Positions 1 through 55,316 of a stretch of 64,000 nucleotides of DNA are shown here, piece after piece (the stretch's first letter is position 1; every line of letters starts with the position of its first letter). Both the position numbers and the translations under genes were made by a program. The stretch covers positions 1-64,000 of the forward strand of contig JALAGF010004961.1 in NCBI GenBank assembly GCA_030167865.1, in the 5' to 3' direction. The DNA comes from Craspedostauros australis. Its lineage: Eukaryota. The notes beneath the pieces were generated by a model, which ran no database searches, was not told where the DNA came from, and was given only the letters and a program-made list of their open reading frames with translations.

Positions 1-1388
1 CGCAAGGCCGGACGGTCTTTCTCGTCTCGCAGTTCGTCGCGGAAGTCTTCATCGCCATCGTCTTCATCCGATTCCTCACTGCTACTACTACTGCTGCTGC
101 TGCTCGAACTGGATTCCTCGCTGCCGCTGCTGTCCGTTTCGGAGTCATCGAGCGATTCCTGATCCCAGCTGGCATTCTCATGCAAGACGCAATGGATCGT
201 CATGGGCACCGAGGCTGCGCTGCTGCTGTCCGAAGAAGAAGAAGACGATGATGATGACGACGACGACGACGAAGAGGAGGACGATGACGAGCTCTGTTGA
301 TCGGCGCGCTGAAGACTCTGCTGGCGCAGCTTTGAGAACTTGCCGGGCGGGTCGTTGGCATTGTCATGCGTATGCTGTTGCTGTTGCTGCTGCTTATTGG
401 AATGCTGTTGCGCATACAGATGATGCACGTCGACTGGCTGATTGATGTGCAGTTGTTGCTGATGTTGCAGTTGCTGATGTTGCTGATGCGGAAGCTGATG
501 ATGGGGATGCTGCTGAAACTGATGCTGTTGCTGCTGCAATTGTGCATGCTGCAGCTGTGGCTGCGATTGCAGCAATATGGATGAGGAAGACGAATGCGAG
601 GGCTGCAGTATGAGATGGGAGGACACGAGCGACCTGGAAGAATGCTCGCGATGCGGCAACGCCGACGGTGGCAGCGGCGCTTGGGGAAGCAGATGCGCAT
701 GCGAGATGGTTGGATCCGGAAGGGGTGGCTGCACCAGAGCCGTGGCGCTCGTGTTGGAACTCTTCATCATCTGCAAGACGTGCAACTGCTCCATGAGGGC
801 CTGGTTCTGCTGCGACAGCAACAGCAACGTATCATGATTGGATGCGCTGTTGTTGTTGAGATGGAGGGTGCTGCTGTTGTTGAGGGTGCTGCTGCTGCTG
901 CTGTTGAGATTGCTGTCTGAGTGGAAGCCGGTTTGACTCAGCTGCTGCACTTGCTGATGCTGATGTTGCTGCTGCTGATGATGAAGAGCCACGGTTGCCG
1001 CATGCGCCTGTTGCACTTGATGCTGTTGCTGATGTTGAGTCTGCTGTTGATGAGTCTGTTGCTGTTGCGTCTGCGTCTGCTGATGCTGTATCTGATACTG
1101 CTGCTTCTGCAGATTGGCAACCAGAGAGGCCTGCGTCTGCACCATCTGCGCCAGGATGTCGATCTTGGCATCGCTGGAAACGGAGGACGGCGTCGTCGGC
1201 GACTGCGGCTGCTTCGGAAAGGAATGGTGGCTCTGGCTGTGGGTGCTGGGGCTGCCATCGTGCGGCAGCGCAAGTTCATCGTCGCTTCGGTTGGCTGTGG
1301 CGATGAAGGCGGGCGTCGGCGCATAGTACGTCGTCGTTGTGGTTGCCATGCCGGTCGCCCTTCTCAGGCTGTGGCTGTGGCTGCTCAT
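1..1388 (-). CDS. 5' part of a Gln/His/Ser-rich protein running off the window edge; probable N-terminus of a sixth chitin synthase paralogue (CHS-A)
   Basis: Not in the ORF track because there is no stop inside the window. Minus frame read by hand is open from ATG 1388 to position 1: MSSHSHSLRR...DILAQMVQTQASLVANLQKQQ...LSQQNQALMEQLHVLQ...poly-S...DEDDGDEDFRDELRDEKDRPAL. The two helical motifs match CHS-F (MSSHRSPRR; SILRQMVETQNALAHNLQ; LSMQNQALMEHIKQLQ). The catalytic part would lie outside the window. Confidence 0.65.
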   Translation of the reverse strand, partial: MSSHSHSLRRATGMATTTTTYYAPTPAFIATANRSDDELALPHDGSPSTHSQSHHSFPKQPQSPTTPSSVSSDAKIDILAQMVQTQASLVANLQKQQYQIQHQQTQTQQQQTHQQQTQHQQQHQVQQAHAATVALHHQQQQHQHQQVQQLSQTGFHSDSNLNSSSSSTLNNSSTLHLNNNSASNHDTLLLLSQQNQALMEQLHVLQMMKSSNTSATALVQPPLPDPTISHAHLLPQAPLPPSALPHREHSSRSLVSSHLILQPSHSSSSSILLQSQPQLQHAQLQQQQHQFQQHPHHQLPHQQHQQLQHQQQLHINQPVDVHHLYAQQHSNKQQQQQQHTHDNANDPPGKFSKLRQQSLQRADQQSSSSSSSSSSSSSSSSSSSSSDSSSAASVPMTIHCVLHENASWDQESLDDSETDSSGSEESSSSSSSSSSSSEESDEDDGDEDFRDELRDEKDRPAL

Positions 1389-2882
1389 CTCGTCACTCTG
1401 ATAACACTCTGTGCAGTCTGATAATGTTATTGATAATGCTCTGTGCAATGGTATGATTCAATGCTCTGTCCAATGGATTGAGCAGACTCGAGAACTCGTT
1501 GTCTCGTTGCGGACTTGATCGCAGTCGGCTGCCCCTGTTGGCGTTGGTGCCTTCTCTTCGGTTGCACACTCCGGAAAGCGAAGGTCAGCAACGAAGAGAC
1601 GTTGCTCCTGTGTGAGGTCCTTCAGGAATGTCCAACCAGATGCAATGAGATGCAAAGCGCTGCTTCGGAGGCCTTTCAGTGAATCTTCAGATGAGACAGC
1701 AGATCGGGTTTGTCCGCGCTCCTCTGGTTGCCGCTGCTGCGTGGGTCTTTGGTGCAATGGCAGCAAGATGATAGCGCCGTCTCCTCCTCTTGCTCTTGCT
1801 ATAGCTGTTGCTTGTGATGATACAAGGACTGCGCGTCTTCTTGTTCCCAACACTCTCTTGTGCTTTGCCTTCTGGCCTTTCTTGCTCGCTTTCTTGGTCT
1901 CTCGTTGGCCTTTCTTGCTTGCTCGCGTGTTGTCTTGCTTGCTTGTTGCCTTTCTTGCTCGAACACCCAACTCAATTCAGCACCTTCTTGCTCTGGAGCG
2001 ATGGTTCAGCTTGGGATGCCGATGATAACATGAATGGCTTGGATGGATGGCGAGATGAATACCAGAACACCAATGGAGCCGAGTGGAGTAGAGTAGAGTA
2101 CGCTGCTTGCTTCCTTCCTTGCTTGCCTGCTTACAACACCACTCTCTTCCATTCCTCCTTGGCTGCGCCAACCAACACTCCCTCGCTCTCGTTTCACGTG
2201 CGCCACTCTCTCTCGATGTGTTCAATCACATGCCGCACAAACCAAGACGACGTGCCGATGCCGCGCAAAAGTCAAAAGAGTCCCTGCGACAACACACGCG
2301 CGCTGCACACTCGCACACAACATTCGCCTCATCTGCAAAATCCACACAAATGAGGACCGCCAAAAAATCTGCTTAACAACAACGTTCCGGGAAACGAATT
2401 AGGGTCTGATTGATAATTAACCAATCATACATTGACAAGCAAACGACAACGAGGAGCGATAATCAAATGATATTAATCGTGGACTCTCGCCATAAGTGAA
2501 ACAGAAATCCCGAATAGTCCACGGGTGGAGCTATCCCGGGAATGGACTCACTCGTGAATCAAGGGAGAACAAAACGGAATCGCTTGTTCCACCGAAAAAG
2601 ATGTAAGTCGATTTGGTCGTGAAACATCGGTCGAAGGTCGTGTCATTTTCACGATCAGATGAAGCAACCAGACAAACAGACAGACGGATATCGGTATGAA
2701 GAAACAGACAGCGTCAGCCTGCAAGTTTTCCCATTTCGACCCATACACTGTTTCTATCCCCATTCCGACGGTGCATGCATCGAACAAGAAAGGGGAAGGT
2801 TGCGAGCACTTCTGCGTAGACTATGGAAGTTACTACAATGTTGTGAGCATTCCTATCCAATTGCGCTCGGCTCACTATGTCT

Positions 2883-5800
2883 TCAATGCATCGCATGTGC
2901 CGAGGCGGCGTCTGCCACGGATGCTGTTTGCTGCGGCGAAGCATTCTCGTGGCCTCCGTACACCACGACGATGCTGTCCGGGCTCAGCGTCTGCAGCAGG
3001 TCGCAGATGGATTCTGCGTACTCCTCGCGCTGCGACTGCATCATCTCTCGTGCTATTCCGCCTTCGTCGCTGGCATCAATGCGATGGACGAAGACGTGGT
3101 AGCCTCCAGCATCGTTGCTGTACTGGCTGCCATCCCTCTTGCGATGCAGAATGTCGTTGATCCCGTGCTTCTCGCGCAGAACCTGGGAACGTTGGATGGA
3201 CTTCATCGCGGACACCATCTTCTGGAACATGGCGCCATCGTGCGTTTCGAAGTACACCAGCAGTTCATGCGACATGGTGCAGATCGTGTGGACTTCCACC
3301 TTCATCATTCCGCCGACCATTGTTGGGACGGCCTTGCCATTCGCACTGGAGCCGGTATCAACGCTCGAAATCGTGGAGAACATTTCGCTTCCCGATGTGC
3401 CTGTTGCGGGCAAATCTCCATTTGCCGTTGCTGCGTTCGTGTTGATGTTCATCTTCATGCCCGTGTCACCCTCGACTTGCGCAGTATTGTTCGCACTACT
3501 CGTACCTTCCATCTGAAGTGACGGGCTTCCGCTTGCGTTCGTGCGACTTCCGCTGGTCGTATTGCCAGCGACATCTTCGGCTGTATCATCATCCGCGGAA
3601 GCTTTGCCAGCGGCGGTATCACCATCGATCCGACGGGTCTTACCCCAAGAAAAGTCGTCCATGTGGACGAAGGAGTACAATGGGAAGATGAGGTAGAACG
3701 TGGGGATGCCCAGCACGATGTAGATGATGAACCAGAAGAAGTGGTCCCACCGCGAACGGATGATGAACGGGAGCATGAGCAGCCCGATGGTGATGCCGTA
3801 GAAGTACAGCACCACGCGATCGATCGTCTCTGGTTTCGAAATGAAGAGGTACGTGAGGTAGCCGATGTACGTGATGCTGGCGGGCAGGATCAGGGTGGCC
3901 AGCAAATCCGCAATCACGACCGTCTTCATGGAGATGCAACAGATGCCGCACATTGTCTTGACCTTCATCAGCTCGAACATGTTGTGCAATGTCGAGTTGA
4001 TCCATCGACGGCGTTGGCTCAGCAGGACGTTGAAGGTGTGCGGCACTGTCGTCCAGCAGATGGCCTCCGGGACGAAGTTCAATCGCATGCCCGGAAAGTG
4101 CTGCAGCAGCAACGTGGTCAGCATGCGGTCCTCACCCAGCTCGTACAGATTCTTCTCGTGCAACGATTTGATATCGTTGCGGGCGTACTCCAAGAAAATG
4201 CGGTCTGATGAAATCAGCGGATTCATCTCCTCCGTGAACAGCCTGTACATGGTGAAGCATCCCGGCAGACATGTGACGCAGCCGAACACAGATTCGAATG
4301 CCCGTTTCATGTGGTGGCTTGAGAAGTACTCGAAGACCTGGATCATGGTGACCCACGACTGCATCTTGTTGTCGACCTGCGTCTCGCCGCAGCAAGCCAG
4401 TACGTTCTTGTCATGTTCGAGGCTGTACGCCATGTGGATGATGGCCTTCGGGTGGATGCGAGTGTCGGCATCGACGGCCATCATGTACTCGACTTGCTGC
4501 AACGGGAGGTTCAGCTTCTCGAATGTCGAGAGCACCGCAGCGTCCAACTCCGTCGGTTTGCGGTTGTGATGCAACCGATTGAGCATGCCTGTCATGATGA
4601 GCTGCGAGTCTCGCTTTCCTCGGTTGCCCGCGGTCGTCGTGCCGCGTTCCTCGGGCGTGCCCTGCTTGACCAGAACGATGTACTTCAGACCTTTAGTTTC
4701 GTTGCCGACTGTCTTTTCGTGCACGCCGGAGTAGACGGAGACGAAGTTCTCGGTACACTTGCCCAATGACTCGTACGCATACCCCGCATCGGAGGGGTCA
4801 AAGTTGAATCCTAAAAGCTTGCCAAGCACCGCCGGAGTGCTGGCGGATGCACCACGGCCGGTGATCACGCCGTCGGCAACGATGACGAGGATTTTGTTCT
4901 CCTCCGGGTACTCGCCTTCGAGCACGCTGTTGATCGTCTTCATCAGCTCCTGATCGGTCTCGTTGTAACACGGCACCATGATCATGACGGCCGCCTTGGT
5001 ATCTTCGTTGGTGAATTGAGGGTGGCGACGTGCCAGGTACAGCATGGAGCAGAGCACCTGCACGATCATGATGAATGCGACGGCGAACATGAGGAAGTAC
5101 ATGGCGATGCCAAGGCTGGCGCAAACCTCGTCGTACCGCCGATCGACCTGGGCGTGGTAGAAGAGCATGTCCAGACACACCTTGAAGTCTTCCGTGGCAA
5201 ACAGGTCGTGGTACAGCTCCGAGCCATCACGGTTGACCCTGTTGACAATGAGCCGGTGGAGATCTTCGTACAGGTATGCATGGAAATGACCGACGTTCTT
5301 GTTGATCACCTTGCTTCGTTCATCTCTGCAGTTGCAATTGCGATTGCACGAGTATGGAGGTGGATGTCATCATGACCACATTGAATGTTTGCGCGAAGAG
5401 CAAAGCATGATCACCGAATAGAATTGCGAAGTTGGTGAGATGGCTGTTTGCATGCGATTGTTGCTGTTGCTAGTCTTGCTGTCGCACACACTCAGTGATC
5501 TCCGTTGAATACACCGCACGCACTGTACCAAATGGCACTTACCGTAACGCATCCACGTATTTGGTGATGTTGTAAATGCTGTCATCGACAACGAGATATT
5601 GCATATCGTCACCCTCCAGTCCTCGCGGGCCGAGCCTCCAGGATGGAATGAGGAAATCTCCCTTGCGATAGTCCCCCAGAAGCTCTTCGACACCGTCAGG
5701 ACCGACCGCGTTCGTGTGACATGGGATGCCGAGGTACTCTTCCAACTCCGTGAGCTCGGGGCACGTCGGCTCCTCGACGTGCGCGTTCGGGTTGACTTCG

Positions 5801-7272
5801 TTGACACAATAATCCGGCAGCGCGGCAGGCGGCGTACGAGGAAAGATCGAGCTGGCGTCCTGTCCCAAGTAATCGACGATGCCATTCGTGCCGCCGGGAT
5901 GATGGCCGATGTAGTGCTTGACGTCGTAGATAGTGCCGAAGATCGTGATCCAGGCTTCGTCCTTCAATTCGTTGATCTCACCTTGCGTGAACTGATCGAC
6001 ACGTTCGCACAGGAAGATCGGCAGGAAGCCGATGCCTCCGACCACGGCGATCGACATGACGCAGACGATGATGCAGATGGCGACCTTTTCGCGCCAGGCC
6101 ATCTTGGCGTCCGCGCCGTCTCTGCAGATGAGGAAGTCGGGGACGAACCATGTCAGCGCCACCGACACCGACTTCCAGAATTGAGATCCGGGAGGATTCT
6201 CGTCGCGTTTGTACGGCGCGATTGGCGGGCTGTACTGTGCGTCCACCGTCTTTGCGTTCTTGGTGCTGCTATCGGCGGATAACGCGAGGGAGGTGGTGGT
6301 TGTACGAACGGTGCTTGTTGCGGCACCGTTGATGCGATTCGCTCTGTCCACCAGAAATTGCTGCCGTGTTGGGATGCGGGAAACGACTTGGGACGACCCA
6401 GCCATCGACGGCGGACTGTTGCTGCTGGCGTTGTCGGATGGTGCAGAGTCGGATTCATCGTGAATTTCCTCAATTTGCGACGACGGTTCGATGTTGATGG
6501 TGGAACCAACGATGGCGTTGTCTGGCAGTTGATCGAGGTACGACTGCTGAGATATGGCCCTTTGCAACGCGGTGAGCGGTGGTGCGGCGGCCTCCTCAAA
6601 ATCATCCGAGAACTCCATCGACAAGTCGGGAACAGCGCACATGGAGAGGCGGTTGTTTCTGCTCGTGTCCGGAATGGCGGGACTTGATCCGCCCATCATC
6701 GCTTGTAGAGCCATGATGTTGGTAGACGCCATGTTGAGTTCCGTCAAGCCGGCAGCAGCCTGTCGGCTTCTGGGCTGTGCGTGTTGCTGTTGCTGCGGCT
6801 GTGTCTGCTGCTGCTGCTTGTTGTGCAGCATGTTGACGATCATGTGTTGCGTGGCAACCATCTGACGCAGCATCTGGGCCGTACTGTTATCCATCGTTGG
6901 CATTGCGCTGCCGCTGCCGTTGATCTGGCCTTGGAACGAAAGCCTTGGCCCATGCTTGATGGACGATGACCGGACGAGATGATCACGGTGCCCGTCCGTT
7001 GCTGCGGTGGCATCTGTCGCACTCGCCTGCAGTTGCATCGCATTCACATCACCGCCAAAAGCAGACTCGTTCAGACCTTCGTCGTGCTCGCCGAGCGTCA
7101 CGGGGGTAGGCAGACCTGTGAAGCTGCTCTTGCGATACGGCATGACGCTGCTCGTTCCCTGCGGTTGCGGCTTTGTGGTCTCCTGGATACGCTCGGCGCC
7201 GCTATCACATTGTCTGAGGCCATCGGCGTGGACGCCATCGTCCTTCTTGTTACCTGTGCTGCTGCTGTCCAT
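2883..7272 (-). CDS. CHS: Chitin synthase (GT2, division-2-like, cytochrome-b5-like domain), CHS-B; 2 exons, ~1390 aa; most divergent complete paralogue
   Basis: Exons 7272-5543 and 5325-2883; intron 5542-5326 (GTAAGT...TGCAG, 217 nt) joins YVDALR/DERSK in frame. Motifs AWREKV, IYDV..HPGG, GNRGKRDSQ, DADT, QVFEY, CLPGCF, LGEDRMLT, SQRRRW, DDFSWGKTR. First ATG taken at 7272. Confidence 0.93.
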
Positions 7273-32393: not shown

Positions 32394-32395
32394 GG

Positions 32396-35871: not shown

Positions 35872-38800
35872 ATGAACCACGGTGATTGGGACACGGACAG
35901 CCGCAGCGTCCATGATTTCGCTGCCGCAGGAGACGACGATGAGTACGCCGATCTCAACGACCTCAGGCATCACCCATCGCATGAGATGTACCCCGATCCC
36001 GCGACGCTGCTGCGGCCCAGATCACAATCGCGCCGAAGAAATCCCAGCAGCCACTCGGGGTATTCCGGCTCCACCCTCTCGAGCGACGAATTCATGCCAA
36101 GTGCAAATCCCTCTGGCCACCAGTTCACGGCACAATTAGCAGATTTCAACCCTGTTCCTCCCATCCGTTCGAGCAGGTCGCTTGCCAGCGGAACGGACGT
36201 GATGGCCAGCCCGCCACTGCCCGTCAAATCCAAGCAATCGATTGCGACCGTGGATACGAACGTCTTGCTGCAACAAATGGAGAGCATCCAGCAAGAGCTG
36301 CAGCAGAGGTCCATGGACAGTTCCTTTGTTGATGTTGCTCTCAATGGCAATGGCAATGGCACTGGGAACAGCATGGGCAACAGCGTTGGCAACGAAAACG
36401 GCTCCATAGACTCGCTCGGTTCGTTCGACGACTTCTACGCCGACGATGCCCCCGATGATGAGCAGCAACAGCCCAACAACATCAAGCCTTTCAAGGCCGA
36501 CAGCCGGCGCGATTCCGACGGGAGCATTCAAGCGTCCGGTGCGAAACTGCGCCAGCTCTCCAGGGAGAACTCGGCCCTGATCTCACGTTTGCACCAACTC
36601 CAGATGGAAAACATGCAGCACTCCGCATCCGGCGGCTTCATGGAGGACGATTCATCTTACCAAAGCCACTATAGCGCGGGCAGTCGCCGCAGTCGAGGTA
36701 GCCGTCACAGCAGCCGCAGTCTCGGCAGCCCCGGCCATCACAGCCCCGGCTACCACAGCCCCAGGCCTTCTGCTCACTCGCGATCCATGATGCGCGGAGG
36801 TTCCCCCTACGGTGACGTCTCAATCCCGCGAACCGGCATTCCGACGTACGCTTCACCATCGCTGATACCACCAGAGGCGATGTTCCACATCCCAACGCCT
36901 CCGCATTCCGACACCGAATCGGTTGGCAGCTATCATTCGAGGTCCTCCGCGCGCAGAGCCAGCGCCCTTCCCATCCCGCAATCACCTCGAATCTCCTCGC
37001 CCTACGCCCGGACAGCAGCAGGACTCGGAAGCATGCACGCCGCCGCACCCACGAGGCATTTCAGCGAGCAACAGTTTGCCTCTGGCTTCGGTCCGGCAGC
37101 TCCTCCCTTCGCTCACGCAAGGACTGGCAACCCACAGCCACCGCTCAGAGCCCACAGCTACGATGGCCGCTCGCACGCTCCATTTGCGCCGACGGTCGAC
37201 GATTTCCACGAGGTTCATCACGTTCCGCGCGATTCGCACTCCGTGACGGGTGGCGAAGCGTGGTATCAGCCACCACCCAGTCCGCACTTGGTCTCGCCAC
37301 CGGGCCATTTCGCGATCCCAGTGACAAGCTTCCACCGGCACTCGTACACTGCCAGGAATACGAGATCACCTGCAGGCGCCGCGCAGCAACCCCCTCGCTT
37401 CCTATCTCAGCCACTGCCACAGCCAGGGTTGGTGCATTCATTTCAGCAAAGTCCGGTCTCGTACAGCGGTCTGGAAAATCCATCCTTCTCCACCATCCCG
37501 GATGACATCGCCTTCGGTTCGATGACCGACGATATGTTGGCACGAAGTATGGCAGGAGACGTGCACGATGACCATTCGTTGGTGAGCGGGGATGGATCCA
37601 GCCTTCCCACCCGCCGTTTGCAGTCATCTAACTCGGTCAAATCTCAAGCACGCCGGCCATCGGGCAAAACCACCGCTACATCGCTGCACTCCGGATCGAG
37701 CCACACCAAGAAGATCAAGTCACAGCAGTACGCCGATCCCATCAACGACTACGAGCCAGTCGACAACCCGCCGGGGTCTCGCTTTTGGAAGTCCCTCTCC
37801 GTGGCCATGACGTGCCTCATTCCGGACTGCCTCATCCCCAAGGAAGAGGACAGCCAGAAGCTGGCATGGCGCGAGAAGGTCACGATCTGTCTCATCGTCT
37901 TCTTCATCTCCGTCGCGATCGTGGGTGGCATCGGCTTCCTCCCCATCTTCCTGTGCCGCGCATCAAACTTCTACTCACAGGAGGAAATCAACAACCAAAG
38001 CGGCGAGGCCTGGATCACGATCTTCGGCACAATCTACGATGTCAGAGGTTATATCAGCCGCCATCCCGGCGGATCCCAGGGCATCCGCGACTACCTGGGC
38101 CAGGACGCGACCGAGCTCTTCCCACGTCCGCCTCCCGCCGCGCTTCCCGCGTTCTGTCTCGACGTGCAGAAGAACTCGTCTCTGGTGGAAGATGTGGGCT
38201 GCCCGCAGCTGGAAGAGCTGGATGACCTTGATTCCGCTGGCGCCTTCTGCCACACAACCATCGTTGGTCGCGAGGGTGTCCAAGAAGCGTTTAGTGGCTC
38301 CAGGGAGGGCGAAGTCGTCATCCCTGCATGGAAGCTCGGCGAGGATGAGTCCATGAGCTACGTTATCCTTGACAAGACGATCTACGACGTGTCGCAGTAC
38401 ATCGATGGGCTGCGGTAAGTCAATCGGGGCCATCGTCCAATCAGTGTCGTTGTGCACAATGCATTTGCTGCAAGTGCACGCGATAACATACGCACAAACA
38501 CCATCCCACTCATTGCACCCTTTCTCCTTTCTTCTTTGCAACCTTCTCACAGTGACGAGAAAACAAGGGTAATTTCTGGTGACCATTCCCATCCAAACGC
38601 CTATCTCGTCGAACAGCTCCATATGCTTGTCACCAACAAGCTCGGTGACGATGCGACGGCGCTTTACAACGACTTGTTCAACACCAACGATTACAAGAAC
38701 TGCATGGACATAATGTTCTACCATGCCCGCGTGGATGATCGTTATGACGCCATCTGCTCCAACATCGGTATCGCCATGTACTTCCTCCTCTTCGTCGTCA

Positions 38801-41256
38801 CCTTCATGATGCTCATCCAGGTCTTCTGCTCTCTCCTCTACCTGGCACGTAGCCATCCGCACTTTACGGATGAGGACAAGAAGGCAGCCGTAATGATCAT
38901 GGTGCCATGCTACAACGAAACGGACAAGGAACTCCTCAAGACCATCGATAGTGTTCTCTTGAATGACTACCCTGAGGAGAACAAGATCCTGACCGTTGTG
39001 GCTGACGGTGTCATCACCGGAGCTGGTGCGACAGCCAGCACGCCAGAGATCCTTGGCCAGATCCTCGGTTTCGAATTCGATTGCATGGACGAAGCACACG
39101 AATACAAGAGTCTTGGTGAGAATACCAGGAACTACATCTCTGTCTACGCAGGAGTGTACGAAAAGGAGATCGGCAACGGAACGCGACGCCTCAAGTACAT
39201 GGTCCTCGTCAAGCAAGGATCGATGGCAGAACGTGGCACTCGCCGAGCCGGTAACAGAGGAAAGCGTGACTCTCAGCTCGCCATTGCTGGTATGCTGAAC
39301 CGCCTCCATTACAACCGTGAGCCAGGTGAGCTGGACAACGTCGTGAAGCGCGAGTTGGACCGTCTTGATATCCCACTGAAGGACATCGAGTACATGATGG
39401 CCATCGACGCCGACACCCGCGTCCATCGCATGGCCATGCAGCACATGGTCTACCACCTCGAACGCAACAAGACCGTCCTCGCCTGCTGCGGAGAGACCCA
39501 GGTCGACAACAAGGCGCAATCATGGGTCACCATGATGCAAGTCTTCGAGTACTTCTCGAGTCACCACATGAAGAAGGCCTTCGAGTCTGTGTTCGGTTGC
39601 GTCACATGTCTCCCAGGCTGCTTCACCATGTACCGACTTTTCACCGAAGACATGAACCCCTTGATCTCCGCCGACATCATCTTCCAAGAGTACTCTCGCA
39701 ACGACATCCAGTCCCTTCACGAGAAGAACCTGTACGAGCTCGGAGAAGACCGTATGCTCACGACGCTGCTGTTGCAGCACTTCGCAGGAATGAAGCTGAG
39801 TTTCGTCCCAGAAGCCATCTGTTGGACCATCGTTCCCCATACCTTCTCCATCTTGCTGAGCCAACGTCGTCGATGGATCAACTCCACACTCCACAACATG
39901 TTCGAGTTGTTGAAGGTGGAGACGATGTGTGGTATCTGTTGCATATCGATGAAGACCATCGTGATCGCAGATCTGCTCGCCACCATGATCCTTCCGGCAA
40001 GTATCGCATACCTCGGATACCTGGGATATCTCTTTGCCACTCAGCCCGAAACGATCGACACGTTCGTGTTATACTTCTACGCCGTGACGATCATCCTGAT
40101 GATGCTTCCATTCCTGATCCGTTCTCGATGGGACTACTTCTTCTGGTTCATCATGTACGTGTTGTTTGGCATTCCGACATTCTACTTCATCCTTCCTCTG
40201 TATTCGTTCGTCCACATGGATGACTTCTCGTGGGGTAAGACGCGCATGGTTAGCGGCGGAGATGCTGCGACGAAACCAGCGACTGAAATGACGGAGCCGT
40301 TGAAGAAGGAAAAGGAGCCATCGAACGAAACGAAAAAAACTGATGCCCAATCCATACGCGAAGGATCGGCCGGACAAAAGGTCCGGGAGGCCGAGGCAAG
40401 AGAGGATGACGAGATACTGTCACTTTCCGAGACCAGCGCCGGGACGTCCCAGCACAATTCTATTCGTGACGGCAACTCAGGCAGGTCCATCTCCAGATCC
40501 CTCCGATCAAGATCTAAGCAACGAACTTCCGTCGCCGCAAAGCAGCGTTCCAAACCCCAATCTGCGACTGTGGTTGAGGCCGTGTCGGTCGGAACTGACT
40601 CCGGAGAGATCTTGGTCTACTTCAAGGCCCCAAATGAAGACCGGCAGCCTCCATTGGAGCAGCTTTTCACCGAGCTTGAACGCTCACAAGCGCTCCAGGG
40701 GGAATTCAACATCCACAGCATCCTCGCACGCTGCGATCCCGATGATCACAACATCCCCCGCAGCGCAGACACAACCGACCCAGAGAGCGACAACTTATGG
40801 TTCACTCTCGTCCGCCGCATCCAACCCACAGAACACAACAGTGTGGCGCTGCGGCAAGAGTACGCAGGAGCACTGTGCGAGATGATGAACAGGATCAGCG
40901 CCAGGAACCTGAAGGATAGCTTCGAGTTTCGTGTTGGGATGGATGTTTCCCCGGAAGGAGGGTCGCAACCACTTGGTGATCACGTCAGCACCGGCGATGC
41001 TATCATGTTCATTCAGGACGTCTTTCCTCAAATGGCACTTGATGCATTGGCCATGGATCGAGACACCATCGAACTTTACTTTGGAAGAAGCAACGCGGGA
41101 GAAGCTAAGAACGCCATCCTGCAAGAAATGTTCTCCCGTCAACAGGCCGCCGGTGTAGGCAGCGACGACAACGACGGCAGCAGCGCGAGCATCGAGGGCG
41201 ACAGCAACGTCGAAGATGTCAGTGACGATGGCGATGGCAATCCCTCTAATTCTTGA
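35872..41256 (+). CDS. CHS: Chitin synthase CHS-D, 2 exons, ~1748 aa
   Basis: Exons 35872-38414 and 38553-41256; intron 38415-38552 (GTAAGT...CACAG, 138 nt). HPGG, GNRGKRDSQ, QVFEY, LGEDRMLT, QRRRW, SWGKTR all intact. Confidence 0.95.
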
Positions 41257-42536: not shown

Positions 42537-42574
42537 AGCCCCGACTCAAGCCCCGACTCAAGCCCCACCTCAAG
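42537..42574. repeat. 12-bp tandem repeat x3 just upstream of CHS-E
   Basis: agccccgactca agccccgactca agccccacctca ag. Confidence 0.85.
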
Positions 42575-42613
42575 TTAACGATCACAAGCAACATCACAAG
42601 CACTTCAAGCAAG

Positions 42614-45600
42614 ATGAGCGGACCCAACGATCACTACCAACCCGACGATGTGTTGCTACCATCTGCAGAAGATCACGCTCCCACCCGATTGAGCCAGGAC
42701 ATGGCTGGCTTGCAACAGCAAATGCGAGGCATTCAACGAACGCTCGCGGAGCTGGCTCGAAACGGAGACGAGCATTCGCTCGGAGGAGGTAGCAGTGTCG
42801 GATCTCATCGCGCAAGAACATTGAGATCGGGCACCATCCCGGAGTCTCTGTCTGAACCAACCCCCGTCGGCATCGAATCGGCCGGTGATGCCTCCCAAAA
42901 CCGTGTGAAACAGCTTTTCTTGGAGAATGCTGCACTCGCGGATCGCCTCCGCAATCTGCAGCTCCAGGCCGCAAACCAGCAGCTCCAGGCCGAGTACATC
43001 GATGACGCTGCATCGTATCACAGTCATTATAGCCAACGTAGCCACCACAGCCAACGCAGCTTCAATAGCGTCCCACATGCGTATGGAATGATGCACCCTA
43101 ACGTGCGACCAGTGACACCAACTGCAATGCACATGAGTCCGCATGCAAGCCCGTACGCAAGCCCATACGCAAGCCCTCACATGAGCCCGCATAGCTACCA
43201 CGGCGGCGGAAACGCGATGGCCTACCGTGCGAGCTCGTCCATGGTGGATGTCTCATCCCACATCCCACCTCCCGTGCTTTCGGACACCCGCTCCATGGGA
43301 AGCAGCGGTTCCATCTCACACCGCAAGACGTACGCGCAAAACACACTTTCGGCGCCAACTCGTCCACCTAGGATCGCAGGGAGAGTCGCGGCGCCGCGGC
43401 GCGTCCAAAGCGGTTGGGGTGCCGCGCGGGCAGCCAGTCCAGATGTAGGAGTGCGCCGAGTGCATAGCTTCGAGCCACGCACGACTCTTCCGTTCGTACC
43501 GCTGACGCAACCGGTCCTTGTGCCGACGCAGACTGTGATGTCAGCGCAATATCCGCACCTCCATCCAGAGACCTTTTCTAACCATACCGAAGTCGATGCT
43601 GCACCGATGCACAACGTGCCGCAGGACATCATCGTCGACCCGAATAATGAATTGTGGGCGCCGAGCGTGGCTGGAGATGCTCGAGATGATCGGTCCTTGG
43701 TCAGCGGAGACGGATCTACGTTGCCAACTCGACGGTTCCACTCTGCGCATTCCATGCAGGCTCACCGCCCTGGAGCTGCGGTCACAGTGGCATCCACATC
43801 GTACTCCGGTTCCAATGCGAGCTTCTCACGAAGTCCTGCGAAGCAGTACGCCGACCCCATCGACGATTACGAACGTGACGATAATCCACCGGGCTCACGA
43901 TTCTGGAAGTCCCTCTCCGTGGCCATGACGTGCATCGTCCCGGATCGATGCATTCCCAAACAAGGCGCTGGTCCCAAACTGGCGTGGCGTGAGAAGGTCA
44001 CCATCTGCCTCATCGTCTTCTTCGTCTCCCTTGCAATCGTCGGTGGCATCGGTTTCCTCCCCATCTTCCTGTGCCGATCTTCCGGCTTGTACACACAAAA
44101 CGAGATCAACAAGCAAAGAGGCGAGGCTTGGATCACGATCTTCGGCACAATCTACAATGTCAGGGGCTTGATCGACAGCCATCCCGGCGGATCCCAGGGC
44201 ATCCGCGACTACCTTGGCAAGGACGCATCCCATCTCTTTCCACGCCCGCCCCCCACTGCCCTGCTTGCGAAGTGTCTTGACACCAGCAAGAACTCGTCCA
44301 TGGTGGAAGACGTGGGCTGCCCGCTGCTGGAAGACTCGGATTACAGCAATGCCAATAACTACTGCCACACAAGTATGGTCGGCATCGACGCCGTGCATGA
44401 GAAACTTGGTGGCCATGAAGAGGGCAAGCTGGTCATCCCACCGTGGACGCTCGCCGAAGACCAGGACGAGGACAAGCCGATGAGCTACCTCATCATCGAC
44501 AAAAGTATATACGATGTGTCGCACTACATCAATGCGTTACGGTGAGTCAATCAATGTTGAATTGCTGTTGTTGCTGTTGTTGTTGCTGCTGCTGCGCTGC
44601 AGTTATCATCATGACCACTTCTCTGCTATCATGATCTATTATACTTGCTCCCTTGGGAAATCAAGAACCAAATCTCACGCACCTTCACCGGCGCATCCGT
44701 CTCTCAATTACTCTCTCTCTCTCTCGCTCTCTCTGTACCCGTATTGGTTGTTCAACCAACAGTGACGAGAAGACCAAAGTCTTCAGCACCGAACCCTCCC
44801 ATCCAAATGCTTACCTGTTCGAGGATTTGCACAACCTTATCATCAGCAGACTTAATGAAGATGCGACTGCCGCCTACGATGCCGCCTTCCAGACCAATGA
44901 CTTCAAGATCTGCATGGACAAAATGTTCTACCATGCCCGCGTGGATGATCGTTATGACGCCGTCTGTTCCAACATCGGTGTCGCCATGTACTTCCTCCTC
45001 TTCGTCGTCACCTTCATGATGCTCATTCAGGTCTTCTGCTCGCTCCTCTACCTGGCACGCCGCCACCCGCAGTTCACAGCAGACGACAAGTCAGCCGCTG
45101 TCATGATCATGGTGCCGTGCTACAACGAAACGGACAAGGAACTCCTCAAGACCATCGATAGTGTTCTCTTGAATGACTACCCTGAGGAAAACAAGCTTCT
45201 CATGGTCGTCGCGGATGGGGTCATCACTGGATCTGGCGCAACAGCCAGTACGCCAGAGATCCTTGGCCAGATCCTCGGTTTCGAATTCGATTGCATGGAC
45301 GAGGCATACGAATACAAAAGCCTGGGAAAGAACACGAGAAACTACATCTCTGTCTACGCAGGAGTGTACGAAAAGAAGATCGGCAACGGAACGCGACGCC
45401 TCAAGTACATGGTCCTCGTCAAGCAAGGATCGATGGCAGAACGTGGTTCAGGCAGAGCAGGTAACAGAGGAAAGCGTGACTCTCAGCTCGTGATCACGGG
45501 CATGCTAAATCGCATGCAACACAACCGCGAACCAGCTGAGGTCGATGTCGTTGTCAGAAGGGAGCTTGAGCAGCTCGACATTCCGCTGAAGGACATCGAG

Positions 45601-47412
45601 TACATGATGGCCATCGACGCCGACACCCGCGTCCATCGCATGGCCATGCAGCACATGGTCTACCACCTCGANNNNNNNNNNNNNNNNNNNNNNNNNNNNN
45701 NNNNNNNNNNNNNNNNNNNNNNNNNNNNNNNNNNNNNNNNNNNNNNNNNNNNNNNNNNNNNNNNNNNNNNNNNNCACATGAAGAAGGCCTTCGAGTCTGT
45801 GTTCGGTTGCGTCACATGTCTCCCAGGCTGCTTCACCATGTACCGACTTTTCACCGAAGAAATGGACCCCTTGATCTCCGCCGACATCATCTTCCAAGAG
45901 TACTCTCGCAACGACATCCAGTCCCTTCACGAGAAGAACCTGTACGAGCTCGGAGAAGACCGTATGCTCACGACGCTGCTGTTGCAGCACTTCGCAGGAA
46001 TGAAGCTGAGTTTCGTCCCAGAAGCCATCTGTTGGACCATCGTTCCCCATACCTTCTCCATCTTGCTGAGCCAACGTCGTCGATGGATCAACTCCACACT
46101 CCACAACATGTTCGAGTTGTTGAAGGTGGAGACGATGTGTGGTATCTGTTGCATATCGATGAAGACCATCGTGATCGCAGATCTACTCGCCACCATGATC
46201 CTTCCGGCCAGTATCGCATACCTCGGATACCTGGCGTACCTCTTCATCACTCAGCCAGAGATGATCGATCCGTTCGTGGTGTACTTCTACGCCGTGACGA
46301 TCATCCTGATGATGCTTCCGTTCCTAATCCGCTCTCGATGGGACTACTTCTTCTGGTTCATCATGTACGTGTTGTTTGGCATCCCGACATTCTACTTCAT
46401 CCTTCCTCTGTATTCGTTCGTCCACATGGATGACTTCTCGTGGGGCAAGACGCGCATGGTTAGCGGCGGAGATGCTGCAGCGAAACCAGCGACCACGGAA
46501 ACCGAAGCGGAACCGAAAGCACTCGACACGGACGACGCGGGTACCAAGAAGAATCAACCGAAAGGCGCGCAATCAGCCGGTGATGCTTCGAGCTGGAAAC
46601 CGTCGTCTGCCCGCGATGATACTGAGGTCAACACCGATTTCGGCACCGCGTTTGAGACAGAGACTGGTGATTCGGGTTCCATGCAAAGGTCAGTCGCAAG
46701 AATGGAAGCACCACCAGCTCGCCTCCGCACCATGGCAACGGCATCGACGATCAGTGCCATCACCCCAACCACCAGAGGACTTCACTCGCACAGGTCGAAG
46801 GAGCGTCGCGTCGAGGATCAGCGCCCTCAAGAGATGGTCAACGCCATCTCGGTCGCAACCAGCTCGGGGGAAATCCTCGTCTACTTTCAACAATCCAAGC
46901 AAAGGAAGCAACCGAATTTAGCCCCGCTCGTCGACAAGCTCGTCACGTCCGACGCCATGTGCCAGAAGTGCAGCATCGACGCCATCCTGACGCGTGCCGA
47001 CCCAGTGAACCCCGACATCCCCCTCACCGCCGATCCTCTGGATCCTGAAGAGTCCGAAGTGTGGTTCGTCTTTGTTTGCCGCGCGAAGACGGCGCAGTCA
47101 AGCAGCTACTCCTTCCGCAAGCAATACGCAGAATCCTTGTGCACTGTTCTGCAAGGCATGCACAGCAACATCTTTGAGACTGAACTCGCCTTTCAGTTTG
47201 GCAAGGACATCACCCCGCCCGAATCGAAGCGGCCGCTGGGGGATTACATCACCAACTTGGACGTCGTTGCATACATCCAGGACATTGTTCATCCCAATGA
47301 CGGTCCCTCAGGTTCATCGGCAATTGGCAGAGAGGCCATCTCTACGTACTTCGGCAAGGATCGTATCAACGAGATCGTGGAGGTGATCGCAAACCTTTCG
47401 CAGGAGGAGTAG
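42614..47412 (+). CDS. CHS: Chitin synthase CHS-E, 2 exons, ~1525 aa (contains a 103-N gap)
   Basis: Exons 42614-44541 and 44763-47412; intron 44542-44762 (GTGAGT...AACAG, 221 nt). HPGG, GNRGKRD, LGEDR, QRRRW, SWGKTR intact; the QVFEY region falls in the gap. Confidence 0.92.
45672..45774. other. Assembly gap (103 N) in the CHS-E catalytic core
   Basis: Run of N; same length as the homologous CHS-D segment 39462-39564. Confidence 0.99.
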
Positions 47413-50063: not shown

Positions 50064-53000
50064 ATGAGCAGCCACCGATCGCCTCGCAGGCCTTCTGGCA
50101 CGTCGGACGAGCCACCGCGCCGCCCACTCGGAGGCGGAAGTTCCCACCAACGGCGCTCCGACTTCACCGGCGGCTCCGCGTCCCTGGCCTCCGAACCATC
50201 CGGCAACTTCAGCATCAGCACGAACACCTACGACGAGCACAGCAGCTCCAACAACAACAATGGCATTAACGGCATGAACAACATGAGACGCAGCAGGAGC
50301 CGCGATCGCAGCAGCGGATCGTACCACCGCAAACCCTCCGTGACGGAGTACAGCACGCACAGCTCTCCCGGCAACGCCTACTTCGGCCGCCGGCCACAGC
50401 GCCGCGAGGAGCCGGTCGACGACGATGGCGCTGAAGAGGACTCCCTCAGCGGCCGCCGCCCCAGCCTCACCAGCAACCTGGACGACGAGACCTCCAGCAT
50501 CCTGCGCCAGATGGTGGAGACGCAGAACGCGCTCGCCCACAACCTGCAGACCGGGTCCGAGGATGAGGACGACATGATGGGAGGTGGCGGCCCAGGCTCC
50601 TACCACAGCCGCACGGGCTCCTACCACAGCAGGACCAACAACTCTGTGCGCAGCCGATCCAACTCCATCCACAGCAAGGGACCGGACCTCGCGGCTCTGC
50701 CCACCATGAACATGCCCTCCATGTCCCCCACCATCGCCTCCGACGACCAGCTGCAGCAGCTCTCCATGCAGAACCAGGCCCTCATGGAGCACATCAAGCA
50801 GCTGCAGGACAACATGCCTGGCGCGGCACCACCGCCGCCTGCCTTGCGCGCATCGGTCTCCGCACCGCACACGAGCCCACGCGGAGCCCCCAACTCACCC
50901 TACGGACCACCCAAATCGCCGCGCAACGATGGATTCGCCCTCGTGCCGCCACCACCGCTCGGCGACGCGGCCTCCGTGGGCAGCAACCACTCTCGTTCCA
51001 AGCCCAACACCTTCCAGGTCCCGCTCTCCGCTCCCCAGGGACGCCGGCCAACGTTCGGCAGCACCCTGCGCGGACCCCAGAGGACCAGCAGCCTGGTAGA
51101 CAACATGGACACGCCTCTCTCCGCTCCGCAGGGAGCGCGACGCAAGTTCAACCCCGCCAACTTCGGATCGGATTCTGCTCCTCGCAGAGTGCAGAGTCTG
51201 CACGGCCGCTCCGTGGATCCTCCCTTCGTGGCACCACCGCCGATGGCCGACATGGACCGTACGGTCCGATCCGTGCCAGCGGTTGCGAGGCGACAGGCCA
51301 GCCTCGGTCCGCCCCTGAACAGGTCCCTGCATGGCCGATCCATGCACTCGCGCGGCAGCAACCACGAACCCGCGCGCAAGATGTCGTTGCACAGCCGACG
51401 CAGCGCGGCCGCGGACGATGCAGATGGCATGAGCCAGCACATTCCGCAAAGCATCGTCGTCAATGCCGAGAACAACGGCACCACGCCTGCCGATGGCGCC
51501 ATGTACGATGATCGTTCTCTCCTCAGCGGCGACGATTCTCGCGGATCGTCCCTGCTGTCGCGTCACGACCGATCGTTAGCTGCGGCCCGCGGTGGAACCT
51601 ACCATCCACGCCAGAGCGGCATGACGGTGGCCACCGCACAATCGGAGAACGTCAACGAGACCCCACCTGTGCCGCAGCGGCAGCGATACGCCGATCCCAT
51701 CGATGACTACGAGCCAGTCGACAACCCGCCGGGTTCGCGCTTCTGGAAGTCACTCTCCGTGGCCATGACGTGCCTCATTCCGGACTGCCTCATCCCCAAG
51801 AAGAGCGCGGGAGAGAAGCTGGCATGGCGCGAGAAGGTCACCATCTGCCTCATCGTCTTCTTCGTCTCCATCGCAATCGTCGGTGGCATCGGCTTCCTCC
51901 CCATCTTCCTGTGCCGCTCATCGGAGATGTACACGCAGGCCGAAATCAACAAGCAGAGCGGCGAGGCCTGGATCACGGCCTTCGGTACCATCTACGACGT
52001 CAAGCGTTACATTGGCAAGCATCCCGGTGGCGCCGAAGGCTTCCGCAACTACCTGGGTCAGGACGTCAGCCGCTTCTTCCCACGTCCACCACCATCTGCG
52101 CTGCCCGCGTTCTGTCTCGACATCAGCAAGAACTCATCTCTGGTGGAAGACCTTTCGTGTCCAGGTCTTGAGGATGAAGAGGATTCGCTGAGCGAGACTT
52201 TCTGTCACACCAACATCGTGGGCCGCGAAGGCGTGCACAATCTCCTCCGTGGATACAAGGAAGGAGAGTTCGTCGTCTCGCCATGGGATCTGGATGAGGA
52301 TGAGAACATGAACTACCTCCTCATTGACAAGACGATCTACGACGTCACACAGTACATTGACGGTTTGCGGTAAGTCCAACATTGTTGTTGGGATTGGCGT
52401 ATTTGATGTTGTTGTTGTTGTTGTTTTGCAATCAGTGGAAAAGCGAGCCCATGCACAAATGTACGCGAACTCACACCTTGTCCCCATCCTTGCATTTACA
52501 GTGACGAAAAGACCAAAGTCTTCAGCACCGAACCCTCCCATCCAAATGCTTACCTCTTTGAGGATTTGCATAGACTCATCGTCAACTGGGTCGACAGCGA
52601 TGCCACCGCCGCCTACGACGCCGCCTTCCAGACCAACGATTTCAAGAACTGCATGGACATGATGTTCTACCATGCTCGCGTGGATGATCGTTATGACGCA
52701 GTCTGTTCCAACATCGGTGTCGCCATGTACTTCCTCCTCTTCGTCGTCACCTTCATGATGCTCATTCAGGTCTTCTGCTCTCTCCTCTACCTGGCACGTA
52801 GCCATCCGCACTTCACGGAGGAAGATAAGAAGGCAGCCGTAATGATCATGGTGCCATGCTACAACGAAACGGACAAGGAACTCCTCAAGACCATCGACAG
52901 CGTTCTCTTGAATGACTACCCTGAAGAGAACAAGGTTCTGACCGTTGTGGCCGACGGTGTCATCACCGGATCTGGTGCGACAGCCAGCACGCCAGAGATC

Positions 53001-55316
53001 TTGGGTGATATCCTCGGTTTCGAATTCGATTGCATGGACGAAGCGCACGAATACAAGAGTCTTGGTGAGAGTACCAGGAACTACATCTCCGTCTACGCAG
53101 GAGTGTACGAAAAGAAGATCGGCAACGGAACGCGACGCCTCAAGTACATGGTCCTCGTCAAGCAAGGATCGATGGCAGAACGTGGCACTCGTCGAGCCGG
53201 TAACAGAGGAAAGCGTGACTCTCAGCTTGCCATTGCTGGTATGCTGAACCGCCTCCACTACAACCGTGAGCCAGGTGAGCTGGACAACGTCGTGAAGCGC
53301 GAGTTGGACCGTCTTGATATCCCACTGAAGGACATTGAGTACATGATGGCCATCGACGCCGACACCCGCGTCCATCGCATGGCCATGCAGCACATGGTCT
53401 ACCACCTCGAGCGCAACAAGACCGTCCTCGCCTGCTGCGGAGAGACCCAGGTCGACAACAAGTCGCAATCATGGGTCACCATGATGCAAGTCTTCGAGTA
53501 CTTCTCGAGTCATCACATGAAGAAGGCCTTCGAGTCTGTGTTCGGCTGCGTCACATGTCTCCCAGGCTGTTTCACCATGTACCGACTTTTCACCGAAGAC
53601 ATGAACCCCTTGATCTCAGCCGACATCATCTTCCAAGAGTACTCTCGCAACGACATCGAGTCCCTTCACGAGAAGAACCTGTACGAGCTCGGAGAAGATC
53701 GTATGCTCACGACGCTGCTGTTGCAGCACTTCCCCGGAATGAAGCTGAGTTTCGTCCCAGAAGCCATCTGCTGGACGATCGTCCCACACACCTTCTCCAT
53801 CTTGCTGAGTCAACGTCGTCGATGGATCAACTCCACGCTTCACAATATGTTCGAGCTGTTGAAGGTGGAGACGATGTGCGGTATCTGCTGCATTTCCATG
53901 AAGACCATCGTGATTGCAGATCTGCTCGCCACCATGATCCTTCCGGCCAGTATCGCATACCTCGGATACCTGGGATATCTCTTTGCCACTCAGCCCGAAA
54001 CGATCGACACGTTCGTGTTATACTTCTACGCTGTGACGATCATCCTGATGATGCTTCCGTTCCTGATCCGTTCTCGATGGGACTACTTCTTCTGGTTCAT
54101 CATGTACGTGATGTTCGGCATTCCGACATTCTACTTCATCCTTCCTCTGTATTCGTTCGTCCATATGGATGACTTCTCATGGGGTAAGACGCGCATGGTT
54201 AGCGGCGGAGATGCTCCGACGCCACCGCCAGCCGTCGTCAAGGACGGCAAGAACCCGGAGAAGGAAGACACCACCGACAAGCAGAGCTCCACCGATGGAG
54301 AAGAGAAGTCCCTCAAGGATGACAAATCCACCGATGACGAGAAGGCGTCGAAGGACAGCAAGACAGTCAAAGACGATGCGACCGCTAAGGATGAATTGTC
54401 CACCAGAGACGGCAGAACCGTCAAGGGCGACGTATCCGTACGCGGTGACAAGCCTGCCAAGGGGGATAGATCCGTTCGTGGCAACAGTTCTGTCCGAGGC
54501 GGCAAGTCCGTCAAGGAAGATGCTTCCATCCTCGACAGAGGTGACGCCAGTGTGCACTCCAGACGCAGCACACGATCCTCGGGCACAGCGAGATCTGGCG
54601 GAACCGCACGCAGAGGAAGAACCGTGCAGGCCATCACCACTGGTACCGACTCCGGAGAAATCCTCGTCTACTTCCAGAGCACGCATTCCGAGAAGCAGCC
54701 GTTCCTGGCACCGCTCGTCAAGGCTCTGGAGGAGTCCGAAGAGCTGCGTCTCGAGTACAACATCGACGCCATCCTGACGAGGCCGAATCCAACAGACCAC
54801 ACCATCCCGCTTCGCGCAGACCCAAGCGACCCCGACGAGGATGAGGTTTGGTTCGTCCTCGTGCGCCGCATCAGGTCCCTGCGTGAGAACAGCCGGGCAT
54901 TCCGCAAGACCTACGCCGAGTGGCTCTGCCTCCTCTTCGCGGACCTCAGCGCACGTCACAAGAAGAAGAGCTTCGCCTTCCGCTACGGCAAGGACATCAC
55001 GCCGGAAGATGGCACTGGTCCGCTCGGTGATTACATCACAACGTCGGACGCCATCGCCTACATCCAGGACGTCAACGCTAACATGGCCCTGGAGTCCCTG
55101 GCTCTCGATCAAGACACGCTCTCCCTCTACTTCGGAGAGGACCGTCTCGGTGAGGCTAAGAACGCAGTCCTCGAGGAGATGTTCGCCCAAGCGCAGGAAG
55201 AGGACGACGATGACGAAGACAGCGTCGAAGTCGATTCCTACGACAGCGGTTCCGATCAGGATCGCTGGGACGAACGCAGAGGCCAGCCCGGCAACCAGAG
55301 CCGCAGAAGGTACTGA
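50064..55316 (+). CDS. CHS: Chitin synthase CHS-F, 2 exons, ~1706 aa
   Basis: Exons 50064-52369 and 52502-55316; intron 52370-52501 (GTAAGT...TACAG, 132 nt). All catalytic motifs intact. Confidence 0.95.

Follow-up and report, generated by a model that had tools for sequence, protein, structure and literature searches.

A chitin synthase array and a neighbouring GH19-fold chitinase-like gene in the raphid pennate diatom Craspedostauros australis

The stretch of DNA analysed here (positions 1-64,000 of the forward strand of contig JALAGF010004961.1, assembly GCA_030167865.1; 64,000 nt, hereafter the window) comes from the diatom Craspedostauros australis and holds five full chitin synthase (CHS) genes, a probable sixth at its left edge, and a chitinase-like gene. 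The five CHS genes are intact and under purifying selection. We think that there is about an even chance that they represent a lineage-specific and still functional expansion of division-2-type CHS, carrying a fused C-terminal domain (C-domain) and linked to a bacterially derived chitinase. The presence of CHS genes in Craspedostauros is already known from the sequences listed in PMC10134812, and the array as such is ordinary tandem duplication; what is new beyond an earlier note on this DNA is the C-domain, the affinity of the chitinase to bacterial proteins, the mosaic pattern that suggests gene conversion, and the drift of CHS-B. The paper listings returned by literature searches show no published account of the CHS array, of the C-domain or of the chitinase. 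The CHS genes are the following:

3..1388, minus strand (open reading frame, ORF, 3-1457): low-complexity N-tail that is probably the 5' part of another, sixth CHS, with two N-tail motifs
2883..7272, minus strand: CHS-A, 1390 aa, the most divergent copy; exon 1 7272-5543, intron 217 nt, exon 2 5325-2883
20902..24645, minus strand: CHS-B, 1214 aa; intron 99 nt (23374-23276)
35872..41256, plus strand: CHS-C, 1748 aa; intron 138 nt (38415-38552)
42614..47412, plus strand: CHS-D, 1525 aa; intron 221 nt (44542-44762)
50064..55316, plus strand: CHS-E, 1706 aa; intron 132 nt (52370-52501)

The earlier note had described five full CHS genes, A and B on the minus strand and C, D and E in tandem on the plus strand, and this description holds. 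Each gene is a pair of ORFs, with a Cyt-b5 domain in exon 1 (5/5; Pfam E 3.5e-12 to 1.3e-15) and Chitin_synth_2 in exon 2 (5/5; E 8e-128 to 1e-153, 428-513 bits against a cut-off of 27), separated by a single GT-AG intron of 99-221 nt that lies at the identical codon position in all of them. The spliced frames are open, with no internal stop or frameshift in 5/5, and give products of 1214-1748 aa; the core of CHS-D contains a run of 103 N, across which the reading frame is kept. The motifs PCYNE, DADT, QxxEY, CLPGCF, EDR, QRRRW and WG are recognizable. Copies A, C and E have the complete set D(A)DT, QxxEY, LPG, EDR, QRRRW and SWG, as the motifs are listed in a passage of PMC9556331; in CHS-D the QxxEY region falls in the run of N. 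All five retain EDR, QRRRW and the W-G of SWG; in CHS-B the S of SWG and other residues neighbouring EDR, QRRRW and SWG are changed. The N-tail of CHS-B is short and holds a tandem repeat of 99 bp x3.2 (24196-24507).

The sixth gene, which was also proposed earlier, stays probable. The left-edge ORF has no Pfam match, and BLASTP against the N-tails gives weak hits (E 0.55-2.3). It contains both short heptad-like N-tail motifs. Its score for them is 209, while 1000 shuffles reach 154 at most and six control ORFs of the window score 101-116; the motifs were selected after this ORF had been inspected. From its sequence, it is probably the start of a CHS whose core lies beyond the window edge.

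The earlier note held that the array would be especially notable in a pennate host, and the host turns out to be one: C. australis is a raphid pennate in the text of 10.1101/2023.03.06.531300 and is placed beside the Bacillariales in that of PMC12146733, and the CHS transcript match and a core labelled as this species agree with it. The two best CHS matches are transcripts (80% identity), and by eye the core common to the relatives P0125 and P0126 is the same as the Craspedostauros australis sequence in Table S6 of PMC10134812. P0125, whose core is 48-96% identical to every window CHS, is probably an assembly chimera. P0126 is a further paralogue that lies beyond the window and might be the left-edge gene.

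Division 2 is defined, in passages of PMC5122149 and PMC12653383, by a Cyt-b5-like domain (PF00173) N-terminal to CHS-2 and by flanking membrane spans. The window CHS have this architecture (Cyt-b5 in 5/5, with 5-6 hydrophobic spans each), as does the Fistulifera sequence P0130. The division 1 domains Chitin_synth_1N and Chitin_synth_1 gave no match in either exon at E up to 0.001, and no Pfam match to a myosin motor or DEK_C was found in the window CHS. PF01644 alone is not diagnostic, because it is weakly listed for all CHS relatives in precomputed tables. Solved CHS structures align to residues 311-478 only, at E 5e-22 or weaker; the Thalassiosira pseudonana enzyme is 56% identical over the whole core. 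The division 2 assignment is one of architecture; the CHS tree has diatom-like rows only. The published labels are different: in the text of PMC5124317 division 2 enzymes are reported only from Thalassiosirales, the pennates being given division 1 and no secreted fibrils, and in that of PMC10134812, where two Craspedostauros CHS sequences are listed, the pennate clade is labelled division 1.

The same combination of Cyt-b5, Chitin_synth_2 and membrane spans is present in TpCHS1 (passages of PMC10134812), in the Cyclotella cryptica CHS (passages of PMC5124317) and in fungal class IV Chs3. EDR, QRRRW and WG are common to these enzymes and the window CHS, whose cores are 54-56% identical to those of Thalassiosirales. 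The differences lie in the raphid pennate host, the local array of five or six copies, the long divergent N-tails and the extra C-terminal domain of ~190 aa. The CHS of Fistulifera solaris (P0130) belongs to the same pennate subclade, with 61% core identity and the same short N-tail motifs, but is without the C-domain; that of Stauroneis constricta (Table S6 of PMC10134812) has the N-tail motifs and apparently lacks the C-domain, in both respects by eye only.

A tree of 36 rows was built from the five window copies and 31 of 120 homologues. It unites six C. australis copies in a single clade (SH-aLRT 98), which groups with Fistulifera, apart from Thalassiosirales. The copies were earlier proposed to be paralogues that share a core and differ in regulatory N-termini. 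True paralogues they are, and not collapsed repeats: the cores are 70-98% identical with synonymous divergence (dS) of 0.16-1.9, and the N-tails, which may be regulatory, are only 16-34% identical. The ratio of nonsynonymous to synonymous divergence (dN/dS) in the core is 0.07-0.19 in all 10 pairs, and in the C-domain 0.19-0.35 among the old pairs of B-E.

The divergence is unevenly distributed along the genes. Among B-E, dS is low in the core (0.16-0.45), higher upstream of it (0.66-0.95) and highest in the C-domain (1.4-3.0), except for B-C, with 0.16 in the C-domain. The low core values do not reflect a slowly evolving region, because A differs from the other copies with dS 1.5-2.2 in every region. 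The longest identical runs of silent sites (10,000 permutations, six pairs) are significant for B-C and C-D (p 1e-4 each) and for B-D (7e-4), weak for C-E (0.011) and D-E (0.021), and not significant for B-E (0.089). On this pattern, the cores of B-E look homogenised by gene conversion. CHS-B has also drifted, deviating at 18 of the 183 near-invariant columns (those conserved in at least 95% of 118 homologues), as compared with 4-7 in its paralogues and at most 9 in any of the 118 homologues. Several of these deviations adjoin catalytic motifs, beside EDR and within SWG, which are required for the activity of PsChs1 according to a passage of PMC9556331.

For B, C and D at least, there are matching transcript-type data. 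Residues 551-887 of P0125 (337 aa) are 100% identical to the end of CHS-D, and D is therefore transcribed; the transcript P0281 matches the 3' half of CHS-B. The run X1, of which contigs only were compared with 23150-43149 and which was taken as RNA by guess, has one contig with 14/14 B-diagnostic letters and another that is the 3' end of CHS-C with 0 differences; its contigs also cover the 3' end of the chitinase, MsrA and two other genes.

Behind the catalytic core, all five copies carry the C-domain:

2886..3302, minus strand: C-domain of CHS-A, truncated, 139 aa, 28% identical to that of E
20983..21561, minus strand: C-domain of CHS-B, almost identical to the one in C; an X1 contig and transcript P0281 cover it
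40567..41145, plus strand: C-domain of CHS-C
46831..47409, plus strand: C-domain of CHS-D
54618..55196, plus strand: C-domain of CHS-E, 193 aa; model with mean predicted local distance difference test (pLDDT) 85

In B-E it comprises 193 residues after the WG motif and a charged linker, and is 46-52% identical to that of E. It is absent from the 118 other CHS compared and present in all six known C. australis copies; the fusion thus predates the duplication. The AlphaFold model, built from five sequences, reaches pLDDT 85. The domain has no Pfam, PHROGs or PDB profile match, Foldseek against PDB and viral structures found nothing at E up to 0.001, and the ESM Atlas returned unnamed clusters or nothing. 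In a wide structure comparison the best Z is 5.0, and the last 50 residues are loosely helix-turn-helix-like (Z about 4.2-4.7). Judged from this model, the domain appears to be undescribed; the lack of matches is no proof that its fold is new. A resemblance to DEK_C finds no support: at E up to 10, DEK_C matches neither 30 members of the family nor the C-terminal ~63 residues of four window copies.

When 1.84 billion representatives were searched with the C-domain, 30 matches came back: two transcripts of C. australis CHS, and 28 proteins of 145-404 aa that are not CHS, most of the latter with a basic N-terminal arm and an acidic tail. The two groups align by hhalign with 98.9% probability (E 2e-17 over 180 columns). 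A hidden Markov model (HMM) built without window sequences, from relatives that had been chosen with the window profile, matches B-E, P0125 and P0126 (E 1e-37 to 2e-22) and none of the remaining 155/161 targets; the truncated C-domain of CHS-A is not picked up by this HMM of the stand-alone family. The match of CHS-E continues over the preceding charged linker and the acidic tail, and we therefore think that a whole small gene was fused.

Where this gene came from is suggested by one free-standing relative, P0283, which lies 230 bp tail-to-tail from an ORF of >1900 aa with Helitron_like_N, DUF6570, an HUH-type motif and PIF1, as in the RepHel proteins of Helitrons; another PIF1 fragment lies on its other side. 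This is the one genomic context obtained for the free-standing relatives: of 236 pattern matches 3 were confirmed, all from one locus (L081-L083 are the same DNA). The window's six frames contain no further copy of the C-domain and no RepHel remnant, and the domain is not among the Helitron accessory domains described in the paper listings returned by literature searches. That the C-domain gene derives from a Helitron-type element would, on this single locus, be a matter of roughly equal chances. A viral origin finds no support: no relative of the C-domain turned up in INPHARED or in the IMG/VR scans, and a separate alignment-based protein search gave only two members, both already known. At the locus itself we observed that the Helitron-like helicase is split (L083 2946-4283, plus; 8275-9312, minus; 11077-16902, minus). 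RepHel ends just after a GDLNQLGPV motif, and the C-terminal PIF1 motifs are in a separate opposite-strand ORF with its own basic N-terminus; a BTB-domain gene and a 1-kb indel bounded by a 131-bp direct repeat are found between the two.

Helitrons capture host genes. The C-domain could then be an ordinary diatom host protein, for example a nucleic-acid-binding or structural one, that was fused to CHS by exon shuffling, its place beside the Helitron being cargo capture or coincidence. The single genomic context and the cargo-like BTB-domain gene at the same locus speak for this possibility, which we take seriously without favouring it, since a conserved host gene would be expected in annotated diatom proteomes, whereas the relatives are rare, highly divergent and nearly all metagenome singletons.

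As for its location, the window CHS have no hydrophobic span after WG, and SWG is cytoplasmic in the solved CHS structure described in passages of PMC9556331, so by analogy the C-domain should be cytosolic; in contrast, an outside C-terminus was predicted for TpCHS1 in the text of PMC10134812. Fungal class V/VII CHS (passages of PMC5122149 and PMC12653383) also bear a small foreign domain of unclear role behind the catalytic core, DEK_C in their case; the C. australis domain is about three times longer and alpha/beta. By analogy with these enzymes, we tentatively propose, well short of conviction, a docking or clustering module.

The second component of the locus is the chitinase-like gene, which is intronless:

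30354..32393, minus strand: chitinase-like gene, 679 aa (ORF and predicted fold)
31080..32318, minus strand: its GH19-fold catalytic domain, 413 aa, with Glu109, Glu118 and WWGRGxxQxT at residue 274

Its order is a hydrophobic N-terminus, signal-peptide-like as judged by hydropathy, the GH19-fold domain, a Cys-rich segment, a Pro/Thr linker and two Cys-rich repeats. The earlier note called it a secreted GH19 chitinase. The ORF, the hydrophobic start and the GH19 fold stand; family membership by sequence does not, as no Pfam family matches at E up to 1, PF00182 (Glyco_hydro_19) included, NCBIfam gave no match, and neither did single and profile searches of PDB sequences. The fold is taken from a model with pLDDT 94, which aligns to 5h7t with Z 14.6, root-mean-square deviation 3.0 A and 196 residues (leading rows Z 14.6/14.4/14.4). 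The 32 top rows of the comparison (Z 14.6-12.0) are all GH19 chitinases or chitinase-like, and non-lysozyme rows have Z 2.1. Hence a GH19 fold is modelled and a hydrolase function predicted.

Glu109 and Glu118 are invariant in 96/96 rows (95 of the 120 listed matches), and the Glu motif is present in 196/200 relatives. In Streptomyces griseus ChiC we take E156 to be the second catalytic glutamate. The spacing of Glu109 and Glu118, nine residues, equals that of E147/E156 in that enzyme (E147 from the title of 1wvv). The core G-R-G-x-x-Q-x-T occurs in 188/200 relatives, and the positions flanking it differ from the signature Y-[FHY]-G-R-G-[AP]-x-Q-[IL]-[ST]-[FHYW]-[HN]-[FY]-NY given in a passage of PMC12943478. 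ChiC (2dbt) and the class IV plant GH19 enzymes (5h7t, 4mck) share the fold (Z 14.4-14.6, about 190-196 residues aligned), the Glu at the end of the central helix, as modelled, and the GRGxxQxT core; the window chitinase differs from them in its Cys-rich domain of 413 residues, twice the size, with 13-22% identity and invisible to PF00182.

Of 4846 candidates, 645 are relatives; they come from bacteria, diatoms, dinoflagellates and giant viruses. The closest named ones are from Stauroneis constricta (49%) and from Smithellaceae, Oligoflexales and Bdellovibrionales (50-52%); those of Thalassiosirales reach at most 40%. Two Bdellovibrionota contigs with relatives have bacterial-type neighbours (TatC, phosphorylases, S49 peptidase). 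In an unrooted tree of 33 rows (21 of 120 proteins, 11 of 80 loci and the window), the window/Stauroneis clade (100/100) is nested among bacterial rows at 96/87 and 100/99, and the monophyly of diatom chitinases is rejected by the approximately unbiased (AU) test (p-AU 2.2e-5), for a group that was named after a quick tree had been seen. The G+C content at third codon positions (0.84) is host-like. Gain by transfer from bacteria is the simplest reading of these sequences and probably the right one, the direction being unproven.

Some further observations concern this family. A Bdellovibrionales protein (L002, P0009) has a GH18 domain fused to the GH19-like domain, which therefore supports chitin as substrate. 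The C-terminal Cys-rich repeats of the window gene (about 30380-30690, minus; CxGC...GPC...VC...C), a similar unit of which is in P0001, have no Pfam match at E up to 10 and are a candidate undescribed carbohydrate-binding module. GH19-like members also occur on viral contigs (L084 6846-9200; L085/L086, L085 7230-8570; L087 4790-6181), two giant-virus metagenome-assembled genomes among the sources; L084 has a VLTF3 gene and a full-length member (38%), and the others are shorter and divergent. The Vibrio relatives found here are multi-domain proteins of about 800-1200 aa, other than the Vibrio 'Bac*' GH19 (569 aa) of a passage of PMC12943478, and membership of V. cholerae VC1073 in the subfamily is not established. 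No member of the subfamily with an assayed activity was found. The GPR1/FUN34 gene and the chitinase converge, with 210 bp between their stops, and one X1 contig (29524-30936) runs across both 3' ends; it is possible that the 3' untranslated regions of the two genes overlap.

The idea of a local synthesis-plus-remodelling locus survives in part. The chitinase adjoins CHS-C, divergently oriented and 3.5 kb apart, and the chance of finding a chitinase within about 11 gene slots is 0.06-2.6% for 1-40 chitinases per genome, with the family size assumed and the question framed after the fact. The gene count used, 16,473-19,297, comes from table passages of PMC12159174 whose headings were unseen. 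Against a contiguous pathway, such as a gene cluster would be, nine unrelated genes are interleaved in the span (three Mpv17/PMP22, a GMC oxidoreductase, an SBPase-like gene, MsrA, GPR1/FUN34 and two of unknown kind), six between A and B and three between B and the chitinase. The seven genes share no 500-bp upstream sequence, and neither GFAT, a deacetylase nor other chitin genes were found among the window ORFs scanned. The locus is loose and not an operon-like cluster, in which the position of the chitinase beside CHS-C is more likely retained than accidental.

The opposite view, that the CHS array is real and functional and the chitinase a chance neighbour whose target is foreign chitin (that of chytrid or oomycete parasites, of detritus, of animal surfaces in biofilms) or peptidoglycan, is in our opinion somewhat unlikely. 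It draws on the nine unrelated genes, on the separate and probably bacterial origin, on relatives in Vibrio, Cellvibrio and Myxococcota that are multi-domain secreted proteins, on the GH19 folds that include endolysins (Z 10.7-11.7), and on the 24-38 chitinases that diatoms can carry according to passages of PMC7874618 and PMC12028343. However, the low probability of adjacency given above holds over the assumed family sizes, the gene lies directly upstream of, and divergent from, CHS-C, and chitinases outscore endolysins in the fold comparison.

If the array and the linked chitinase are functional, their history and action might be as follows. A small gene in its entirety (basic arm, ~190-aa domain, acidic tail) would have been added to the 3' end of an ancestral CHS before the copies multiplied by tandem and inverted duplication. 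Gene conversion would then keep the B-E cores alike while N-tails and C-domains diverge; because these parts diverge, the copies would differ in when and where they act. From what is known of the family, each CHS would take cytosolic UDP-GlcNAc and extrude a beta-1,4-GlcNAc polymer through the membrane, with CHS-B as a weakened or non-catalytic copy, and the product would probably be a thin wall or division-plane chitin layer and not long threads. The chitinase, probably acquired from bacteria by an ancestor of Craspedostauros and Stauroneis, would be a secreted inverting GH19-fold hydrolase using Glu109/Glu118 that most likely trims the cell's own chitin.

Several observations weigh against this reading. 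The C. australis wall is mannose-dominated (Table 1 of PMC4584364), and the portions of the literature consulted report neither chitin nor a GlcNAc polymer from it. The identical C-D tract includes the run of N and may be a product of the assembly. P0281 joins the 3' half of CHS-B to a canonical EDR region; part of the drift may be allelic, or P0281 may be chimeric. The RNA status of X1 is guessed and none of its contigs crosses an intron, and transcript evidence is absent here for A, E and the left-edge ORF. The Foldseek E for GH19 is 0.039 at best, though GH19 entries rank top; in the chitinase tree, six neighbouring rows are without taxon and the direction of transfer is unrooted. The Helitron link concerns one locus of rearranged structure in which element termini were not found, and scans of IMG/VR viral contigs for the C-domain family and RepHel confirmed nothing.

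A bolder version, which we consider unlikely as a whole, would make the locus a chitin-fibre machine of borrowed parts, with division-2 synthases that domesticated a Helitron accessory protein of undescribed fold as cytosolic clustering module, amplified copies kept alike by conversion, one copy turning into a non-catalytic partner and the linked, bacterially derived GH19. The trailins of C. australis, with bacterial CAA domains (passages of 10.1101/2023.03.06.531300), are a precedent for bacterial genes at the cell surface of the same species; they are unrelated to CHS and chitinase, and 'chitin' occurs 0 times in the main text of that paper. Quite improbable is a neutral or decaying duplication by mobile DNA, with a meaningless copy number and short chito-oligomers or nothing made: the 18/183 deviating columns of CHS-B, the truncated C-domain of CHS-A and the absence of reported chitin in C. 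australis would fit it, but there are no stops or frameshifts in 5/5, dN/dS is at most 0.19 in the core and 0.19-0.35 in the C-domain, and the window is without a RepHel remnant. An assembly artefact, in which mis-assembly duplicated one or two genes, might explain the run of N in D and local tracts with 97-100% third-position identity, but is largely refuted already: N-tails, introns and linkers are unique, dS rises to 3.0, and B, C and D are each singled out by independent contigs or transcripts.

Among the neighbouring genes, the FBPase-family ORF at 19549-20430 (plus) matches sedoheptulose-1,7-bisphosphatases (SBPases; E 1e-64 to 2e-60) better than FBPases (E about 1e-24); to our knowledge, a plastid SBPase is missing in many diatoms. 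The Mpv17/PMP22 genes (8353-9906, plus; 10270-11052, minus; 17101-18627, plus) lie within 10 kb, two of them being 68% DNA-identical over 179 bp. A tRNA-Leu gene is at 61889-61971 (plus), and long ORFs without a Pfam family are at 14527-16605 (plus), 25682-26737 (minus), 58871-61576 (plus) and 62326-63999 (plus).

The published record, in the text of PMC5124317, ties division-2 CHS to thread-secreting Thalassiosirales, and six to seven copies of division-2 architecture under selection in a raphid pennate stand in contrast to it. The chitinase marks a widespread GH19-fold subfamily that Pfam-based surveys, such as the one described in passages of PMC7874618, would miss. The model of the C-domain is confident and resembles no PDB entry closely; the domain may be an example of a transposon protein that was domesticated by a cell-wall enzyme. 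If the machine of borrowed parts were real, the wall, the division plane, the raphe or the adhesive trail would contain a chitin structure that has so far escaped detection. Since C. australis is a laboratory model for gliding and adhesion, whether raphid pennates make chitin, and where, becomes a directly testable question.

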